This document shows, piece after piece, positions 4,509 through 50,462 of a stretch of DNA of 64,000 nucleotides (positions are counted from its first letter, which is position 1; every line of letters starts with the position of its first letter). Source of the DNA: Syntrophorhabdaceae bacterium (GTDB lineage: Bacteria; Desulfobacterota; Syntrophorhabdia; Syntrophorhabdales; Syntrophorhabdaceae). Where the stretch lies: assembly GCA_963665295.1 (NCBI GenBank), contig OY762209.1, positions 960,001-1,024,000 on the forward strand. The letters are read 5' to 3'. Made by a program: the position numbers and the translations under genes. A model generated the notes under the pieces. That model was not told the DNA's origin and did not search any database. It saw only the letters and a list, made by a program, of their open reading frames with translations.

Positions 4509-5372
4509 ATGAATAGAGACGTGCGCTGTATCAGGGAAGGAATCACCTACAAAACGGTAGTTTTTGCAACTCTGTTGATTTGCTGCATATTACACTTCTT
4601 CTTATCATCGTCCGCAGTGGCGTCATCCCTCAGCAATGTCGTCACGGGAAAGGGCGTCGTCATCACGAAAGATGATTGGTCCCAACTATTTATCAAGGAT
4701 GGGACCATCCAATTTACGGAGACGGAGGGTGTGTTTGTTACGTTTGACGTTCTAGGGTCTTCAGGCGTTACGCAGGTGAAGGTTTCGTGCACCCTCGACG
4801 GAGAGGCCTGCAACGAGCCTTTCCGCACCTTTGGCATTGCGGAGGGAGTAAGCGGCCTTTTCCAACTGAACTTTGTGCCCAGAGGGACCCATTCGGTCGT
4901 CATCACGCTCTTTGATCAGATAGACGGCGAATACCAGGAGGTTGACAGCCGGATACTGTCATTTTCGGTGGAGGCCGGTGCGCACGCCGACCTGGCCGGC
5001 GCAGTCTCGGGAAACAGGTTGATCATGGGTGACGGCATGCCTCCGTGGAGGTTCGACGTCGAGAAACAATATCACCCGACCCGCCTTAGACGCGATATGC
5101 CTTTATTCACCGCGGTGAGGCTCACAAACATAATTGGGTGCAACAAGTACCAGGTAAAGGTCGGTTTCCGGAAGGGCGGGAAGAACATAGAGGGCTTCTC
5201 AAAGGAGTACGATACTCAAGGCCTCTACAAAAGTGAAGAATACGTCTGGATAGCGCAACCCGCCGATAGCCTGGAAAAAGGTGGATACAGGCGAACCATT
5301 TCGATCAGTTACGACGGCGGTCCTTTTACGGAGTTAAAAGAGAACGGCACAAAGCTGTTTTCGATCTACTGA
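4509..5372 (+). CDS. Hypothetical exported beta-rich protein
   Basis: 287-aa ORF, G-rich RBS, hydrophobic N-terminal signal-like segment; no family recognised. Confidence 0.7.
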   Translation: MNRDVRCIREGITYKTVVFATLLICCILHFFLSSSAVASSLSNVVTGKGVVITKDDWSQLFIKDGTIQFTETEGVFVTFDVLGSSGVTQVKVSCTLDGEACNEPFRTFGIAEGVSGLFQLNFVPRGTHSVVITLFDQIDGEYQEVDSRILSFSVEAGAHADLAGAVSGNRLIMGDGMPPWRFDVEKQYHPTRLRRDMPLFTAVRLTNIIGCNKYQVKVGFRKGGKNIEGFSKEYDTQGLYKSEEYVWIAQPADSLEKGGYRRTISISYDGGPFTELKENGTKLFSIY

Positions 5373-5480
5373 AGCCTGTCAGAAAATGCCGATGTCGCGA
5401 GATCCTATGCGCTTAGCCTGTAAACCGATAACCCACGCCCCGCGGTTTCTCCGGACAAGCATAGATATCAAAGGCCTCCC
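5327..5480 (+). repeat. 154-bp segment, inverted copy at 11905-12058 (9 mismatches)
   Basis: Manual alignment; includes the last ~14 codons of 4509..5372 and downstream DNA. Confidence 0.95.
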
Positions 5481-6942: not shown

Positions 6943-6986
6943 GATGCGGAACGTGTCAATGAAAATGAGACACTTCCATCAGATAT

Positions 6987-7985
6987 TTAGTGTACCCCGC
7001 CATCGCTCGTTGATAATGGCTTATTGATCCAGACGGCGTCAGGCAGTGACGCCGGTTTCGGCATCCTCCCCTTGAACCGTTCCGGATGTTTTTCATACGC
7101 AGCCCGCAGTACGTCCGTACGACCTTCAATGATCCTCAACGCTCTTCCATAATGGACGTCCTCGGGGGTGAGAAGACCTATCCCCGAATGGTAATGCTCG
7201 GTATTGTACCAGGGGAAGAATGTCTGGCAAAAGGCCCGGGCATCCTCAATGGAGCCGAACCTTTGAGGGAACTCGGGCCGGTACTTCATGGTCTTGAACT
7301 GAGATTCGGAATAGGGGTTGTCATTACTGACCGAAGGCCTCGAATGGCTCTTGGTGACCCCGAGATCGGCCATGAGCAGGGCGACGGGTTTCGACGTCAT
7401 ACTCGACCCCCTGTCCGCATGGATCAGGAGCTTACCGGGCTCTATCATTTGCTTCTCGCAGGTCTCCGCGATCAGTTTGCGAGCAAGGGCGGCAAGTTCC
7501 CTGTGGGCCACCATCCACCCCACCACATAGCGGCTGTAGATGTCGAGGATCACATAGAGGTAGTAGTAGGTCCATTTTACGGAACCCTTGAGCTTCGTGA
7601 TATCCCAGCTCCACGCCTCGTTGGGCGCCTTCGCGAGGATCTCCGGTTTTGCGTACCGGGGACGGGAGACCTGCCTCCTCCTTTCTTTCAGCTCACCTTC
7701 TTCTTCAAGGATCCGGTACATGGTGCGCACTGAACAGAGATAGCTCTTCTCGTCCAGGAGGGCCGCGTAGATTTCCCGGGGTGCTTTATCGATGAAGCGG
7801 TCCGAATGAAGGATATCAAGTACATCGTTCCGTTCCCCGAAGGAGAGGGCCAAGGGAGAGAGACGGTTCAAAGGTTCCTTCTCTTTCGGATGCTGCCACC
7901 GGTAAAAGCCCGCACGGGATACGTCGAGGGCGTTGCAGGCAGGGCGGATACCCACTTCATGGGCAAGCGATTGCGTGATGTTCAT
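6987..7985 (-). CDS. IS3 transposase OrfB (rve/DDE integrase)
   Basis: WSWDITKL, HADRGSSM, SNDNPYSESQFKTMKY. Confidence 0.95.
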   Translation of the reverse strand: MNITQSLAHEVGIRPACNALDVSRAGFYRWQHPKEKEPLNRLSPLALSFGERNDVLDILHSDRFIDKAPREIYAALLDEKSYLCSVRTMYRILEEEGELKERRRQVSRPRYAKPEILAKAPNEAWSWDITKLKGSVKWTYYYLYVILDIYSRYVVGWMVAHRELAALARKLIAETCEKQMIEPGKLLIHADRGSSMTSKPVALLMADLGVTKSHSRPSVSNDNPYSESQFKTMKYRPEFPQRFGSIEDARAFCQTFFPWYNTEHYHSGIGLLTPEDVHYGRALRIIEGRTDVLRAAYEKHPERFKGRMPKPASLPDAVWINKPLSTSDGGVH

Positions 7986-8380
7986 GACTTCTCCTCGCTC
8001 GACCCCTTGAGCAGCTCGGCCACTTTTTTTTGGACCTCGATAATGAGCTCCGCCTGTTTCAGTTTATGGGTGAGCCTCGTGTTCTCCTTTTCCAGTTCGA
8101 TGGTGCGACGGATAAGGGGATCAGGCTTTTGTGTGACGGGTCCTCTCTTTTTCGGGATGAGGCCCTGGTGAACCTGACGCCGCCATGAGGTGAGGCTCGA
8201 TGAATAAAGTCCCTCTCTGCGCAGAAGCGCCCCTATCTCACCCTTCCCGGTACAGTTCTCCACCTCCTTGAGGATACGGAGCTTGTACGCCGCGGTGAAT
8301 TTCCGGCGAACTGCCTTTTCCGGTACTTCCGGATCGGGGACTACCCTTGGTGATGCCATGACTGATTTCTTTTCTTCCAC
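7982..8380 (-). CDS. IS3 OrfA (HTH); -1 frameshift signal A8G at ~8023-8031
   Basis: RRKFTAAYKLRIL...GALLRREGLYSS; CAA AAA AAA GTG, -1 frame open into orfB. Confidence 0.92.
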   Translation of the reverse strand: MEEKKSVMASPRVVPDPEVPEKAVRRKFTAAYKLRILKEVENCTGKGEIGALLRREGLYSSSLTSWRRQVHQGLIPKKRGPVTQKPDPLIRRTIELEKENTRLTHKLKQAELIIEVQKKVAELLKGSSEEKS

Positions 8381-8455
8381 GATCGTTCTTTCCTTCCCGC
8401 CCCCAAGAGTCTAAACTATTGGGTGGGAAGTGTCTCACTTATATTGGCACGGAGG

Positions 8456-9958: not shown

Positions 9959-10115
9959 TTATTAAATATGCCGGTTGTGAGGTTCAGCAGGCAAGTTGAC
10001 GGGTCAAAACCGATGGGAGGCAGGCCCAGGACCATCGCGCGCTTCGCGGTACGGCCTTTCTTTCAACGGGCCTTTATTTCCGGCATCGATTTTATTAGAT
10101 ATGCCGGTTGTGAGG
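9959..10115 (+). repeat. 24-bp direct repeats (9959-9982, 10092-10115) 133 bp apart
   Basis: TTATTA(A/G)ATATGCCGGTTGTGAGG, one mismatch. Confidence 0.9.
9979..10091 (+). repeat. 113-bp direct repeat, copy 1 (copy 2 at 12059-12171)
   Basis: Ungapped alignment, offset 2080, 8 mismatches. Confidence 0.95.
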
Positions 10116-10255: not shown

Positions 10256-10972
10256 ATGAACATCGACCTCACTGACAGGATCACCAAAGCAGTTTCTCAT
10301 TACTGGCAGACCCGATCTGCACAGCGTCAAAAACAGCAACAAAGCGGCAAAGCCGATCAAGGGTTGAGGAGCGCCGTAACGGGTGGTGCCCAGATGGATG
10401 GCTTCATTGATTTTCTGACCGACCTTATCGTACGGTCCGGTATAGGTGAGGAATTCGTTTTCCGGAGAAAGGCCGTTGAAATTCCGGGGTACTTCAGGCC
10501 CACCAAAGAATGGGACCTTCTTGTTGTTCGTGACAAGACGTTGATGGCGGTAATAGAAGCAAAGTCTCAGGTTGGTCCTTCTTTCGGAAACAACTTCAAT
10601 AACCGGACGGAGGAGGCAATAGGAAGCGCCCTCGACCTATGGACCGCGTTCAGGGAACGTGCGTACCTCGACAGCCCGCAACCCTTTTTGGGGTATTTCT
10701 TTATGCTTGAGGACTGTGAAGCGTCAGTCAGACCCGTCTCTGTCCAGGAGCACCACTTCAAGGTTTTCTCTGAATTCGTGGGCGCTTCATATATGAAACG
10801 TTACGAACTATTCTGCCGGAAGCTTGTCCTTGAAAGACATTACTCTGCCGCGGCTTTTATCACCTCAAGGTCTGATACCGGGATTAGGGGAGCATATAAG
10901 ACTCCTGCCGACGATTTATCCCTCGAACGGTTCGCCCGGACGTTGGCCGCCCACGTGAAGAGTTTTGCCTGA
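10256..10972 (+). CDS. Type II restriction endonuclease, PaeR7I/XhoI family
   Basis: RSAVTGGAQMDGF, PGYFRPTKEWDLLV, EAKSQVGPSFGNNFNNRTEEAIGSALDLWTA. Confidence 0.9.
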   Translation: MNIDLTDRITKAVSHYWQTRSAQRQKQQQSGKADQGLRSAVTGGAQMDGFIDFLTDLIVRSGIGEEFVFRRKAVEIPGYFRPTKEWDLLVVRDKTLMAVIEAKSQVGPSFGNNFNNRTEEAIGSALDLWTAFRERAYLDSPQPFLGYFFMLEDCEASVRPVSVQEHHFKVFSEFVGASYMKRYELFCRKLVLERHYSAAAFITSRSDTGIRGAYKTPADDLSLERFARTLAAHVKSFA

Positions 10973-11885
10973 AATCATGACTGCAACGTCTCACAGACTT
11001 ATTACGGGCGATGCACGAGATCTCGCCTTTTTGGCAGACGAGTCGGTGCACCTTGTAGTGACGTCTCCGCCCTATTGGAACCTAAAGCGATACAATGAAT
11101 CCCCTGATCAAATGGGTCACATCGAGGATTACGAGGTCTTTCTCCGGGAACTTGAGAAAGTATGGAGACACGTTTTTCGTGTGCTTGTTCCAGGCGGACG
11201 GCTTGTTTGTGTGGTCGGCGATGTCTGCGTCGCCAGACGCAATTTTGGGCGACACCTCGTATTTCCTCTCCACGCTGATATCTGCGTCATCTGCAGGCGG
11301 ATCGGCTTTGACAACCTCAATCCGATCATCTGGCACAAAATAGCCAATGCATCGTACGAGGTGGCAAATGGTTCAAGGTTCCTTGGAAAGCCGTATGAAC
11401 CAAACGCAATAGTCAAAAACGACATGGAGTTCATCCTCATGCAGCGGAAGCCCGGCGGATACCGGAAGCCCTCGGGGGCTCAGCGTGAAGCGAGCAGGAT
11501 ATCGAAGGAGGAATTCGACCGCTGGTTCCAGCAGATATGGAACATAACAGGAGCTTCAACAAAATACCATCCCGCGCCATTCCCCTCGGAACTGGCGACC
11601 CGCCTCGTACGCATGTTCTCTTTTGCGGGTGACACAGTTCTTGACCCATTTTGCGGCTCGGGTACCACCATGGTTGCCGCCCTCAGGACCGGGCGGAACA
11701 GTATCGGAGTGGAAATAGATCCGGATTATTGCCGGATGGCGGCCCGCTATCTCAAGGCCGAGAGTTCCAGTCTTTTCTCCGAGATTAACCTGGTCTTCGA
11801 AAGAGTCACTGCCGAAAACGAATGCATGGTAAGAGAGGATCAAACGCTTTACGAAATAAAACCGGCCCGTAAAAAACTGACCTGA
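10965..11885 (+). CDS. Beta-class amino DNA methyltransferase (N4-C/N6-A; start 10965 or 10977)
   Basis: VTSPPY (motif IV) precedes HPAPFP and LDPFCGSGTT (motif I). Confidence 0.93.
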   Translation: MPEIMTATSHRLITGDARDLAFLADESVHLVVTSPPYWNLKRYNESPDQMGHIEDYEVFLRELEKVWRHVFRVLVPGGRLVCVVGDVCVARRNFGRHLVFPLHADICVICRRIGFDNLNPIIWHKIANASYEVANGSRFLGKPYEPNAIVKNDMEFILMQRKPGGYRKPSGAQREASRISKEEFDRWFQQIWNITGASTKYHPAPFPSELATRLVRMFSFAGDTVLDPFCGSGTTMVAALRTGRNSIGVEIDPDYCRMAARYLKAESSSLFSEINLVFERVTAENECMVREDQTLYEIKPARKKLT

Positions 11886-11904
11886 CTTGCGGGGAACTCT
11901 GCGG

Positions 11905-12058
11905 GGGAGGCCTTTGATATCTATGCTTGTCCGGAGAAACCGCGGGGCGTGGGTTATCGGTTTAAAGGCTGACCGCATAGGACCTCGCGACATAGGCATT
12001 TTCCGACAGGCTTCAGTAGATCAAAAACAGCTTTGTACCGTTCTCTTTGAACTCCGTA
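11905..12058 (-). repeat. Inverted copy of 5327-5480
   Basis: Reverse complement encodes ...TEFKENGTKLFLIY* versus ...TELKENGTKLFSIY*. Confidence 0.95.
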
Positions 12059-12171
12059 GAGGTTCGGCAAGCAAGTTGACGGGTCAGAACCGATGGGAGA
12101 CAGTCCCGGGACAATCGCGCGCTTCGCGGTACGGCCTTTATTTCAACGGGCCTTTATTTCCGGCATCGATT
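12059..12171 (+). repeat. 113-bp direct repeat, copy 2
   Basis: 93% identical to 9979-10091. Confidence 0.95.
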
Positions 12172-12358
12172 GATTAAAATAAATAGGTTGCGCCGGGTGG
12201 AGTAGGTGGGGGCGTGGAGCGAAAGTTTCAGATGGGCTGCTCTGTGAAGGGGTGTGGCCTGGAGCCGTACTTAATGTACGGAGGAAGGCTCGCCCCTTTG
12301 CAGAGGGGTCCATATGGAGCTTTCACTTCACGCCCCCACCTGTCCACTGGAACTAAAC
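12149..12358 (+). repeat. 210-bp structured element, copy A (long hairpin ~12197-12347, apex CCGTAC-TTAAT-GTACGG)
   Basis: Homologous to 46900-47109; imperfect palindrome with G.T wobbles. Confidence 0.9.
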
Positions 12359-12461
12359 ATACCACAACTTCCGAATACATCAGAACTTTCTCCGAGCCCC
12401 TCTGCTCCGTGCGCCTCTTCCGCTGCCCGTGGGCGGTCCCGGGGCGGTCCGAGGTATTTTA

Positions 12462-12490
12462 TTGCATTAACTTGAAAAACTTACTATAAT
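12462..12490 (+). promoter_or_regulatory. Sigma-70 promoter of the phoU-pst operon
   Basis: TTGCAT-N17-TATAAT. Confidence 0.7.
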
Positions 12491-12521
12491 CTGCGCGGTA
12501 AATCCATGAGGAGGACCATCG

Positions 12522-13202
12522 GTGGAAGGACATATCTATAAGGCCTTCGATTTAGAGTTGAAGGAGCTTAAAGAGAAACTGCTCTATGAGGGCGGGCTCG
12601 TGGAAAGGGGCATCAGGGACGCTACCAAGGCGCTCCTCGAGCGCTATTCCGAACTTGCCCAGAAGGTCATCGAGGACGACGAGGTGATCAACGCCAAAGA
12701 GGTGGAGATCGACGAATACTGTCTGAAACTCCTCGCCCTCCGCCAGCCCGCGGCGCGGGACTTGAGATTCATCACCACCGCCATCAAGATCAATTACGAT
12801 CTCGAAAGAATCGGCGACATGGCGGTCAACATCTGCGAGAGGGTCCTGGAACTGAACGAGGAACCACAGCTCAAGCCCTACATCGACCTCCCCACCATGG
12901 CTGGGACGGTCCAGCTCATGGTAAAGGAAAGCCTTGATGCATTTGTGAGGGAAGATGTCGAATTAGCGAAAAAAGTCACGGAACAGGACGCAAAGGTTGA
13001 CCAGCTTCTGGAACAGATATTCCGGGAACTGCTCACCTACATGATGCAGGACCTTAAGACCATCTCGAGGGCCACTAGGCTCCTCTTCATATCGAAGTAC
13101 CTCGAGAGGATGGCGGACCACGCAGTCAATATCGCGGAACTGGTGATATTCATGGTTCAGGGGAAAATCATCAGGCACCTCAAGGACCATCCCGGGGAAT
13201 AA
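12522..13202 (+). CDS. phoU: Phosphate signalling protein PhoU
   Basis: QPAARDLR, DLERIGDMAVNI, LERMADHAVNIAE; GTG start with GAGGAGG. Confidence 0.96.
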   Translation: MEGHIYKAFDLELKELKEKLLYEGGLVERGIRDATKALLERYSELAQKVIEDDEVINAKEVEIDEYCLKLLALRQPAARDLRFITTAIKINYDLERIGDMAVNICERVLELNEEPQLKPYIDLPTMAGTVQLMVKESLDAFVREDVELAKKVTEQDAKVDQLLEQIFRELLTYMMQDLKTISRATRLLFISKYLERMADHAVNIAELVIFMVQGKIIRHLKDHPGE

Positions 13203-44850: not shown

Positions 44851-46143
44851 ATGGCTAAGATAGATGGAATACGAATACAGAACTTTAGAGTCCTCAAAGA
44901 CGTAACCCTCGGAAAGCTTTGGAGTTTGCAACAGGCGGAGCCTCTAACCGCGATGACAGCCGTCATAGGAAAGAATGGAGTTGGTAAGAGTACGCTTTTT
45001 GACGCGTTTGGCTTTTTGTCCGATTGTCTCAAAAGTGGCGTAGAAGAAGCATGCGATCTGCGAGGGCGTGGCGGGTTCGACAAAATTCGTTCTCAAGGGC
45101 AGGACGGCCCCATTAAATTTGAGCTTTACTATAAAGAGGATGGCAATGCCCGTCCAATAACCTATGAGCTTTCCATAGACCTTGACCACATGCATCGCCC
45201 CTATGTTCAAGGAGAGCGACTGAGGCAACGGCGAAAGGGGCAAAAACACGGTTGGCCCTTTTCGTTCCTTATGCTTGACAATGGCCGTGGGGTCGCTTGG
45301 AAGGGAGAGGAGGAAGGTCGTCAGATTGATGAGGGCAAGGGCGATTTTGATCCGTCAGAGTTCATTAGAACAATCATAGAAGAATATGGCAAGGAAGAGA
45401 GCAGGGAAACCGAGGTAGTGGAATTGGAGGACATGAGGAAACTTGGCATCGCTACCCTCGGGTCGCTGAAACAACACCCCCGTATCTCAGCTTTTCGACG
45501 CTTTATGGAAGGTTGGTACCTCAGTTATTTTACCCCGGACGCTGCCCGAAGTCTACCTCTCGCTGGCCCACAAAGGCATCTCAACATTCACGGCGATAAT
45601 TTGGGAAATGTGGTTCAGTTTATGGAGAGGGAACATCCTAAAAAATTCAGAGCGATCTTGGATCAGATTGCAGCGAAAATCCCCGGCATCAATAAGATAG
45701 ATACCGAGAAGACGCCCGATGGGCGACTCCTTCTTCGCTTCAACGATAAGGGATTTTCAGATCCATTCTATGCGCAACAAATGTCCGATGGGACTTTAAA
45801 GGTGTTTGCGTATTATTTGCTGCTTGAAGACCCTACGCCTCCACCATTTTTATGCATTGAGGAGCCGGAAAATGGCCTTTATCACAAGCTGTTGGAATCG
45901 TTAGCAAAAGAATTCCGAGACCATGCCACTGGCCAAAAAGGCGGTTCGCAGATTTTCATCACTACTCACCAACCGTACTTCGTCAACGCTCTCGCCCCCG
46001 AGGAGGTGTGGATTCTAGACAAAATCGGTGATGGTTTTTCAACAATCCGTAGAGCAAGTGCCGACGCCCTTGTGTCCAACATGGTTAACGAGGGATTGCC
46101 GCTAGGTGGTCTATGGTATAGTGATTACTTGGATATACGGTGA
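44851..46143 (+). CDS. ABC/SMC-type ATPase (AAA_21/AAA_15)
   Basis: IQNFRVL, GKNGVGKS, MSDGT, IEEPENGL, TTHQP; codon usage less GC-biased than core genes. Confidence 0.93.
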   Translation: MAKIDGIRIQNFRVLKDVTLGKLWSLQQAEPLTAMTAVIGKNGVGKSTLFDAFGFLSDCLKSGVEEACDLRGRGGFDKIRSQGQDGPIKFELYYKEDGNARPITYELSIDLDHMHRPYVQGERLRQRRKGQKHGWPFSFLMLDNGRGVAWKGEEEGRQIDEGKGDFDPSEFIRTIIEEYGKEESRETEVVELEDMRKLGIATLGSLKQHPRISAFRRFMEGWYLSYFTPDAARSLPLAGPQRHLNIHGDNLGNVVQFMEREHPKKFRAILDQIAAKIPGINKIDTEKTPDGRLLLRFNDKGFSDPFYAQQMSDGTLKVFAYYLLLEDPTPPPFLCIEEPENGLYHKLLESLAKEFRDHATGQKGGSQIFITTHQPYFVNALAPEEVWILDKIGDGFSTIRRASADALVSNMVNEGLPLGGLWYSDYLDIR

Positions 46144-46147
46144 TATT

Positions 46148-46840
46148 GTGCACTTTGAAATCCTCGTTGAAGATACTTCGGGAAAAAGACTTCTTGAGGC
46201 GCTGGTCCCAAAGATACTAGGCGCGAACGGTGGACCTCATACATGGCGCATCATTTCATACAAAGGCATTGGACACATACCGAAGGATTTGCGGGGCAAA
46301 CTTGATCCGTCAAAAAGGGTACTACTCGACCAACTGCCAAGATTGCTGGCAGGCTATGGGAATACGTATCCGAACGGTCTACATGATACAGTTGTGGTCG
46401 TGGTTATAGACTGTGACGACAAGAAGTGCGATACTTTTCTCTCTGATCTGAATCAAATTTTGAACATCTCCATCTCTAAACCTGAGACATTATTTAGACT
46501 GGCGATTGAGGAATGTGAAGCGTGGTTGTTAGGAGACAGGGCAGCGGTTACACAAGCGTATCCTCGAGCAAAGAAGACAGTCCTTGATGGATACATTCAG
46601 GATTCGATCTGTGGCACGTGGGAGAAGCTGGCCGATGCCATTTATCCAGGTGGAGCAAAGGCCCTCGAGGGAAGGCCTTATTTTGAGGTTGGTACCGTAA
46701 AATGCGAGTGGGCTGAACGAATCGGTCAATACATTAACGTTGAAACGAACGCATCATATAGTTTCGGTAAACTCCGTGATGGCTTGAGGAAGCTTGCCGG
46801 GAAAGCAAGGGACACGAACCGAGAACTGCAAAGGACATAG
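46148..46840 (+). CDS. DUF4276-like (TOPRIM-like) protein
   Basis: GTG start; EILVEDTS, VVIDCD, AIEECEAWLLGD. Confidence 0.82.
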   Translation: MHFEILVEDTSGKRLLEALVPKILGANGGPHTWRIISYKGIGHIPKDLRGKLDPSKRVLLDQLPRLLAGYGNTYPNGLHDTVVVVVIDCDDKKCDTFLSDLNQILNISISKPETLFRLAIEECEAWLLGDRAAVTQAYPRAKKTVLDGYIQDSICGTWEKLADAIYPGGAKALEGRPYFEVGTVKCEWAERIGQYINVETNASYSFGKLRDGLRKLAGKARDTNRELQRT

Positions 46841-46899: not shown

Positions 46900-47109
46900 G
46901 GCCTTTATTTCCGGCATCGATCAATTGAAAATAAATAAGATGTGCCGGGTGGTGTAGGCGGGGGCATGGGACGGGGACTTCAGATTCGTTGTTCTGTGAG
47001 GGTTCGCAGGGCGTCGTCGTACTCAAGTACGACAGAGCACGCGTACCCTTGCAGAGCGGCGGAGATGGAGTTTCCGTTCTATGCCCCCACCTGCCCACTG
47101 AAACTAAAC
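46900..47109 (+). repeat. 210-bp structured element, copy B (long hairpin ~46949-47098, apex GTCGTAC-TCAA-GTACGAC)
   Basis: Same length, same 5' 22-mer and same 3' AACTAAAC as copy A. Confidence 0.9.
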
Positions 47110-49379: not shown

Positions 49380-50462
49380 CTAGTGTAGTGTCTCAGTAAC
49401 GCCTTTACAGCGATTCACTTTTTCAAGTATCTCCTCGGCCTTCCTGGTCCATACGAAGGGTTTGGGGTCTTCGTTGTTGCAGCGAATATATTCTTCGATG
49501 GCGGTCACCAGTTCCTGAACGCTTTTGAAGATGCCGCGACGAATTCTCTTTCGTGTGATCTCCCCGAACCAGCGCTCCACCAGGTTAAGCCACGACGAGC
49601 TTGTGGGTGTAAAGTGGGGAACGAAACGGGGGTGTTTTTCGAGCCATGCTTTCACATTGGGGTGGGTATGAGTTCCGTAGTTGTCGAGAATCATATGGAC
49701 ATCGAGGCCCTTTGGCACCTGACGGTCTATGGTACGCAGGAACTTAAGAAATTCGGTATTTCTGTGGCGGGGATAGCAGGAGCCTATGACTTTTCCTTCC
49801 AGAACATTGAGGGCGGCAAAAAGACAGGTAGTGCCGTTCCTTTTGTAGTCGTGGGTCATCGTGCCGCAGCGCCCCTTCTTCATCGGTAATCCCGGCTGGG
49901 TCCGGTCCAGGGCCTGCACCTGGCTTTTCTCATCCACACAGAGTACCACCGCTTTGTCGGGAGGATTGAGATAGACGCCCACCACATCGGTCAGTTTCTC
50001 CACGAACTTCTTGTCTCTGGACAGCTTGAAAGTTTCTACCCGATGGGGCTGTAGTCCATGGGCATCCCAGATGCGCTGCACGGTGGCATGGCTCACGCCC
50101 TTCTCCTTTGCCATGGTGCGGGTGGACCACTGAGTAGCATCTTTGGGAGTTGTATGGAGCGTGGCTTCCACGATGGTGCGCACTATCTCCGGGTTAAGGC
50201 GCCTTGAACTCGGCCCATGGGGTGCGTCCTCCGACAAACCGGAGGGGCCCTGTTCTCTGAAGCGGCCTACCCACAATATCACCGTAGGGCGGGAGGTATT
50301 GAGCCTCTTCGCTATGGCGTTATGGGACATCCCTTCTGCCGCGAGCAGGCAGATGCGGGAGCGTAGAACCACCCTTTGGGGAGTCTTCTTTGCTTTGACC
50401 CATGTTTCCAATGTCTTTCTCTGCTCTTCCGTCATGTCTAGCGTACTGGCTGGATTCCACAT
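49380..50462 (-). CDS. IS630 transposase
   Basis: WSTRTMA, VDEKSQ, LDNYGTH, SWLNLVERWF. Confidence 0.96.
   Translation of the reverse strand: MWNPASTLDMTEEQRKTLETWVKAKKTPQRVVLRSRICLLAAEGMSHNAIAKRLNTSRPTVILWVGRFREQGPSGLSEDAPHGPSSRRLNPEIVRTIVEATLHTTPKDATQWSTRTMAKEKGVSHATVQRIWDAHGLQPHRVETFKLSRDKKFVEKLTDVVGVYLNPPDKAVVLCVDEKSQVQALDRTQPGLPMKKGRCGTMTHDYKRNGTTCLFAALNVLEGKVIGSCYPRHRNTEFLKFLRTIDRQVPKGLDVHMILDNYGTHTHPNVKAWLEKHPRFVPHFTPTSSSWLNLVERWFGEITRKRIRRGIFKSVQELVTAIEEYIRCNNEDPKPFVWTRKAEEILEKVNRCKGVTETLH

Follow-up and report, generated by a model that had tools for sequence, protein, structure and literature searches.

A widespread structured hairpin repeat in Syntrophorhabdaceae and their relatives, conserved in fold rather than in sequence

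The stretch of Syntrophorhabdaceae DNA analysed here (64,000 nucleotides, positions 960,001 to 1,024,000 of contig OY762209.1; hereafter the window) contains two copies of a hairpin repeat that is a real and widespread structured element, conserved in its fold rather than in its sequence. Selection on the fold of one strand is strongly supported. As an explanation we tentatively favour a hairpin module, non-coding and non-autonomous, in which selection maintains the shape of one strand, most likely in the form of single-stranded DNA that a putative protein recognises; a function as RNA is the main rival.

Copies of the element and covariation of its fold

The initial annotation had described a 210-bp element with an identical 5' 22-mer, a small CCGGCA...GCCGG inverted repeat, a CGTAC-N5/N4-GTACG apex and a 3' AACTAAAC, and both copies are present in the window with all of these parts:

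12149..12358, + strand: copy 1, 210 bp, folding strand +
12160..12196, + strand: small 5' hairpin or inverted repeat, closed by CCGG and AT-rich in the middle; relatives have a true hairpin here, variable in length
12197..12347, + strand: long imperfect hairpin of about 150 nt, from the fold and the alignment of copies
12242-12247 (CTGTGA) and 12300-12305 (GCAGAG), + strand: invariant across the copies of this genome
12266-12270 (CGTAC) and 12276-12280 (GTACG), + strand: apex of copy 1
46900..47109, + strand: copy 2, 210 bp; small inverted repeat 46911-46948, long hairpin about 46949-47098

The view of a two-copy element was nevertheless too narrow. BLAST and iterated nhmmer searches of the genome (5.51 Mb, one contig) recovered about 27 near-full copies and a dozen partial ones, and a covariance model run over the whole genome returned 26 full-length matches plus one copy split by an IS630 insertion. 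At about 11 loci the 5' part stands alone, retaining the small hairpin and lacking the long one. The copies share 51 to 97% pairwise identity (median 64%; 72% between copies 1 and 2), and the 5' 22-mer and AACTAAAC, although common to both copies in the window, are features of a subfamily and not of the whole family. Throughout this genome the element is short, non-coding, multi-copy and intergenic, and at five loci it forms head-to-head pairs. Its layout is a small CCGG-closed hairpin, then the hairpin of about 150 nt, then an A/C-rich tail. The lower stem of the long hairpin is free in sequence, varying and covarying, while in the upper core the spacing of the internal loops (GA/GA or GA/TA, and a purine-rich 3x3 to 4x4 loop) is constant, below a CGTAY/RTACG apex with a variable loop.

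Of the 62 consensus pairs, 38 are the same in copy 1 and copy 2, 11 are altered in both partners, 9 in a single partner with pairing retained, and 4 are broken, which bears out the earlier hand count of at least 8 double compensatory changes. G.T pairs number 10 and 12 in the two copies and A.C combinations 1 and 1. Folded as DNA, the + strand reached z-scores of -10.0 and -6.4 and the - strand -7.0 and -4.3 (copies 1 and 2), with 0 of 200 shuffles folding as well in each of the four strand and copy tests; both strands thus beat their shuffles, the + strand by more. The covariation holds with more copies. Across 25 genome copies, 97.3% of 1547 stem cells are paired and double changes occur at 35 of the 62 pairs, whereas none of 500 shuffles reached any of these measures and slid controls gave 39-50%, in agreement with the earlier observation that stem sequences differ while pairing is kept. 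The 95 covariance model matches in other genomes are 91.8% paired, with double changes at 57 of 62 pairs and slid controls at 34-42%; this alignment was fitted to the model and so leans towards it, and one of its matches is a reverse-strand shadow. The folding strand is the more stable one in 25 of 25 genome copies under RNA and DNA parameters alike, and G.T pairs outnumber A.C by 231 to 13. From the covariation and this excess it follows that selection acts on one folded strand, as had been proposed from the + strand G.T pairs of the two copies. In RNA, G.U pairs and tandem G.A loops are just as characteristic. The letter differences that public DNA contigs show within copy 1 match other copies and were left out of the analysis.

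Several copies have been modified. At C1:616982-617641 (L012) a full copy follows four 170-bp units in tandem, all of which end just 3' of the small hairpin, and a very degenerate copy (E 8e-4) lies in an island of low coding score at 815.5-815.7 kb (L132). In four genomes a second small hairpin with a GG(T/C)ACCC core replaces, or sits in, the apex or 3' arm of some copies, and is possibly another mobile hairpin that targets the repeat:

L027 (C1:4985844-4986132): copy with GG(T/C)ACCC hairpin
L110:2786-3077: copy with GG(T/C)ACCC hairpin
L066:3562-3793: copy with GG(T/C)ACCC hairpin
L481: copy with GG(T/C)ACCC hairpin

The IS630 copy that splits one element is at C1:1461577-1462659. An IS630-family transposase with at least 15 near-identical genome copies is also encoded in the window at 49380-50462 (- strand), as is, at 6952-8451 (- strand), an IS3-family element with 26-bp inverted repeats, which has about 12-16-fold depth in public contigs and is therefore multi-copy.

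Distribution among relatives and MITE shells

Since BLAST with copy 1 reached just 2 of 40 relatives, and these weakly, a covariance model was needed to follow the element further. Our model R1 detects it in 20 of 69 family genomes, and the broader model R2 in 47 of 96 genomes of the order, namely in 24 of 68 genomes of family f1 (a few of them weak), all 22 of f3, 0 of 2 of f2 and 0 of 3 of f4. In a sample of the phylum R2 matched 35 of 149 genomes, more weakly and mostly at E values of 1e-5 to 1e-13; the 25 of these weaker matches that we read have the core CAGATG ... GGCGTAC-loop-GTACG ... CAGATG in common. At least 124 metagenome stretches match the broader core pattern, which had 0 matches in viral contigs, and blastn found none on plasmids. 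Scans with exact patterns from the copies of this genome gave 0 matches in viral and 0 in genome contigs, the pattern being too lineage-specific. Insertion is lineage-specific, with both filled and empty orthologous sites. Gene content and the labels of integrase homologues suggest anaerobes of the Desulfobacterota type. The neighbours of copies are mostly housekeeping genes, and neither 60 loci of relatives (732 ORFs) nor loci L248-L388 revealed a recurring partner gene. Copies at orthologous sites of G007 and G020 rank 6th-11th of 26-27 by similarity, which is consistent with mosaic exchange.

The same core hairpin occurs inside at least four unrelated MITE shells across the relatives. i) In G007, G020 and G073 it belongs to a unit of about 370 bp with a 16-bp terminal inverted repeat (TIR) beginning GGTATTGTC at about -110 and +50. 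Both ends are present in 16 of 58 copies, with an 8-bp target duplication that is exact in 6 of these 16 and has one mismatch in 2 of 16, and filled and empty orthologous sites were found in both directions between G007 and G020. Longer units of this type have no transposase; what separates their left TIR from the hairpin is non-coding DNA or a small passenger ORF. ii) A second shell is bounded by TIRs of the GATGG-N4-GTAAAAAG type, a motif with 62-117 sites per genome, and has 6-bp duplications that are exact in 3 of the 4 hairpin-bearing units shown. iii) A third has CAGGCTGCTGAAAAA-type TIRs around the core. iv) A fourth shell, with a further TIR, is seen in near-identical copies of G104. 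The GATGG-type shell also encloses unrelated CGTC-type REP-like hairpins in place of the core (L279, L288 and L303; G120), so that shell and core are separable. In the GATGG-type and CAGGCTGCTGAAAAA-type shells an inner degenerate TIR copy pairs with the right TIR, and a comparison of G070 with the phylum matches suggests that such an inner TIR arm gave rise to the lower stem in the TIR-less form.

In the genome studied here the hairpin is bare. None of the 27 copies has a TIR with target duplication (11-mer, up to 1 mismatch, 4-9 bp), no TIR motif is common to them and the TIR motifs of the relatives are essentially absent from the genome; in 8 of the 27 copies there are merely scattered 8-9 bp matches at inconsistent offsets. 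TIR and duplication are also absent from 13 copies in G003, 7 in G001 and 15 in f3. By this test the form in this genome is not a MITE, whereas elsewhere the core travels as one, the shelled relatives having TIRs, target duplications and filled and empty sites. The annotated lack of IS-type terminal repeats accordingly stands for the copies here and does not extend to the lineages with shelled forms. What is new is that one core hairpin is common to unrelated MITE shells while the form here has neither terminal repeats nor duplication, and it is surprising that the fold appears to outlive the shell.

Because copies here and in G003, G001 and f3 lack TIR and duplication, it is solely the shelled relatives that point to past transposition of this form inside a shell. 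Copies would have reached new sites by DDE transposition in trans while enclosed in MITE shells; in the present lineage the shell would then have decayed or been shed with the fold kept, and blocks may have been swapped among copies by recombination or conversion. An ordinary decayed MITE that has no function would be another explanation, with the covariation produced by arm-copying (template switching) and the easy duplication of hairpins. The inner arms of shelled forms are indeed degenerate copies of the right TIR, as arm-copying would give, whole blocks covary together and partial copies without the long hairpin exist. Arm-copying would, however, erase mismatches, yet the internal loops are fixed out to distant families; together with the G.T excess and the persistence of TIR-less copies in 22 of 22 f3 genomes, this has already weakened the explanation, and we consider it quite unlikely.

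Strand orientation, the 5' flank and candidate enzymes

With the replication origin at about 1.08 Mb (GC skew and dnaA), the folding strand belongs to the leading-strand template for 16 of 17 unpaired copies (p 0.0003) and at 9 of 11 partial loci. Local codon skew, correct in 80 of 92 cases in this genome, places 53 of 77 copies from four f1 relatives in agreement with this bias, and raw skew, which shows none in G007 (11/31) and G020 (13/26), is uninformative or contrary there. In the sister family f3 the bias is absent (20 of 41 copies in three genomes: 4/10, 9/13 and 7/18). The leading-strand-template bias is thus real in this genome and not universal. No copy falls between 2.90 and 4.93 Mb (p 4e-5 under uniform placement, for interval limits picked after the fact).

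The orientation to the 3' neighbour gene is mixed, with 18 codirectional and 9 convergent copies here (n=27) and 43 and 36 in relatives (n=79), and on this ground a riboswitch or leader was rejected. The fold may still act as RNA: the hairpin, transcribed on its own or together with a gene, would stabilise mRNA, mark it for processing or bind a protein, and MITEs would just spread it. This is also how Aklujkar et al. (2009; PMC2700814) described such repeats, and according to Di Nocera et al. (2013; PMC3733652) MITEs are co-transcribed and fold as RNA. The abundance of G.U pairs and the purine-rich make-up of the internal loops would suit such a role, copies persist at orthologous sites, and they lie near gene ends or starts, often within operons, with a median 3' gap of 125 bp in this genome. 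On the other hand, the folding strand is antisense to its 3' neighbour in the convergent copies (9/27 and 36/79), its transcription would run head-on to replication in 16 of 17 unpaired copies here, and no sigma-70 promoter or terminator consensus was found around copy 1 (11880-12530). We regard an RNA function as possible but less likely.

The 5' sides of both copies in the window carry accessory genes and rearranged DNA:

9979..10110, + strand: 132-bp direct repeat (87%) of 12059-12190; partial copy with 5' 23-mer and shortened CCGG inverted repeat
10256..11885, + strand: XhoI-type endonuclease (10256-10972) and N6/N4 methylase (10965-11885), 5' of copy 1
11905..12058, - strand: inverted copy of 5327-5480 (154 bp, 94%), directly adjoining the direct repeat
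44851..46840, + strand: AAA_21 ATPase (44851-46143) and DUF4276 protein (46106-46840), low coding score, 5' of copy 2

The direct-repeat pair brackets the restriction-modification genes and takes in the 5' end of the element. The 154-bp inverted copy matches DNA 6.4 kb away, and one public contig shows the opposite join across this inverted repeat, running from 11904 into 5480 of the opposite strand. Upstream tandem or direct duplications of 70-170 bp occur at five loci. Of the 17 unpaired copies in the genome, 9 have defence, toxin-antitoxin, resistance or similar accessory genes on their 5' side or adjoining it, a count that stands without a genome-wide background rate, and none of their 3' neighbours is annotated as such cargo. 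The kinds found are restriction-modification, AAA_21-DUF4276, HSDR_N, RHH-ParE, HicAB, OLD, GmrSD-HEPN, class A beta-lactamase and PIF1-WYL; the beta-lactamase (L005:5073-5948), directly 5' of a copy, has PEN-like best matches below subfamily cut-offs. Hairpin extrusion during replication could make the 5' flank a place of duplication, inversion or DNA capture, and copies may survive best with the folding strand on the leading-strand template, as chromosomal attC sites do. A bolder proposal, which we think unlikely, is that a phylum-wide, protein-recognised single-strand structure forms a mobile or recombinogenic unit of its own, TIR-free, colonising and rebuilding unrelated IS ends by fold-back on the right TIR and directing, by means of a putative enzyme, the capture of defence genes and other cargo at its 5' side.

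Y1/RAYT, IntI, RT, IS1, IS1595, PF01609 and DUF772 were each tested, and none is supported as a partner. Against the favoured single-stranded DNA module stand this lack of any partner enzyme or binding protein among our results and the absence of the replication bias in f3. For the GGTATTGTC shell no cognate transposase was found (IS1 in 0 of 69 genomes; IS1595 in 0 of 4 relatives). The CAGGCTG-type (third) TIR flanks an IS1182-family match in L511, the 1 locus of 10 with both ends; the GATGG-type TIR with its 6-bp duplications was seen at none of 10 loci with IS1182 and, at 13 loci with PF01609, in unpaired form. In retrons a reverse transcriptase gene adjoins the msr-msd ncRNA; here the genome has two RT matches, one of them 2.2 kb from 1 of the 27 copies, and there are none among 87 neighbour ORFs in relatives.

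The element would be REPIN-like if RAYT, TIRYT or another HUH (Y1) tyrosine transposase copied it. The intergenic multi-copy hairpins, the five head-to-head pairs and the tandem amplification of 170 bp at 617 kb are reminiscent of BIME/REPIN products; two copies have Y1 fragments on their 5' side, and the long stem often begins with a GT(A/G)G-like motif. The unit is not, however, a GTAG- or CGTC-tagged palindrome of 20-40 bp: GTAG/GTGG is frequent and not invariant, and the arms do not each contain a short REP palindrome. The element flanks none of the four full Y1 genes in the genome, and PF01797 is found in 57 of 69 family genomes regardless of it, being absent from G020 (about 45-50 element matches), G070 and G072. 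A REPIN-like origin is thus very unlikely, and the REP/RAYT check left open by the initial annotation found the Y1 gene neither flanked by nor co-distributed with the repeat. The four Y1 transposases (L029-L032; C1:825725, 849001, 860498 and 1816241) are 312-323 aa long; two have clear terminal inverted repeats (TIRYT-like) and three adjoin the same upstream IS end.

In G007, G020 and G003 IntI looked a strong partner at first: at 8 places in these genomes an intI gene or fragment is found on the 5' side of a copy, 0.14-2.1 kb away. The element could then be a non-canonical attachment site at which an integron-type tyrosine recombinase inserts cassettes 5', and the cassette-like cargo and the attC-like strand and replication bias here would fit. 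The case was lowered by the intact IntI of G003, which serves a classical attC array, by the G073 orthologue (71% identical), which has no copy within 1.5 kb, and by IntI loci from other taxa, 0 of 80 with a full R1 match and one with a partial match at E 4.5e-4, R1 being weak on distant forms. This genome has no IntI above the cut-off. The attC box consensus is RYYYAAC/GTTRRRY, and such boxes are absent from the aligned copies; both window copies lack attC boxes and tRNA features, as first annotated, and the element forms no tandem array beside intI. We rate such an attachment site as highly improbable.

Three further observations concern these enzymes. An attC-like site and a truncated Y1 gene (L022:7000-8400) lie 5' of the copy at C1:2369487, in a genome that has no intact IntI. 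L066:1531-2907 and L137 belong to an integron-integrase clade of 450-460 aa with a long N-terminal extension, whose best 120 homologues are at least 62% identical and mostly full length. The copy of this long integrase in G073 has no cassette array in the 1.5 kb downstream.

Relation to described repeats and biological meaning

The Rfam search found no family at the gathering threshold, the best being a generic microRNA-hairpin model (42.8 bits vs 137), as the initial annotation had anticipated when it recognised no named family. That claim holds only in part, since the element is MITE-borne in relatives and matches by eye the Gmet_R1001-R1024 repeats of Geobacter metallireducens, 24 intergenic copies of 111-116 nt reported without explanation (Aklujkar et al., 2009; PMC2700814 Fig. 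S1) and occurring in three further species too. In reverse complement these show, by eye, the core CAGAT, GGAGGCGTA-loop-TACGCC, AGATG. They differ in that the article lists them, grouped by BLAST, as "predicted short RNA elements" of the opposite strand, and are shorter, without the 5' hairpin and the long lower stem; the parts of that article dealing with them give no structure, covariation, MITE link or function (PMC2700814). Nor did we find a structural or mechanistic description of the repeat in the mainly open-access literature searched.

With prokaryotic MITEs such as Correia/NEMIS, ERIC and RUP, the element shares being non-coding, intergenic, multi-copy and folded into stems, and its shelled relatives carry TIRs and target duplications; unlike them, the form in the window has no TIR or duplication, and the element is one internal module in unrelated shells, conserved in structure and not in end sequence (Di Nocera et al., 2013; PMC3733652). 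The MITE sections of that review leave these taxa unmentioned. REP/REPIN/BIME elements (RAYT or TIRYT) are likewise extragenic hairpins with head-to-head pairs and mosaic and tandem rearrangements, but our element is much longer, is conserved at the apex and internal loops instead of being a tagged short palindrome, and lacks a flanked or co-distributed Y1 gene (PMC3733652). In 25 of 30 sedentary integrons the attC folding strand is on the leading-strand template, which limits excision (Loot et al., PMC5371416). The folding-strand bias in this genome resembles that of sedentary chromosomal integrons; in contrast to attC sites, the element has no R/L boxes and no array, is scattered singly in a genome with no IntI, and does not show the replication bias in family f3 (PMC5371416). 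The repeat is a variant at the border of MITEs, REPINs and attC.

A major group of anaerobes very commonly carries this repeat, which had a single sighting, in 2009, without explanation; these results provide its structural definition. A practical consequence concerns annotation, as the repeat produces spurious small ORFs, recurring as such or as false N-terminal extensions (L312, L251, L274, L289). A module kept by its fold across unrelated MITE shells, and after loss of the shell, blurs the boundaries between MITEs, REPINs and attC. Conservation of the fold implies a binding protein, which would be retrievable with a defined substrate. If the effect on cargo at the 5' side is true, the sites would offer slow-growing syntrophs and sulfate reducers a way to acquire defence genes.
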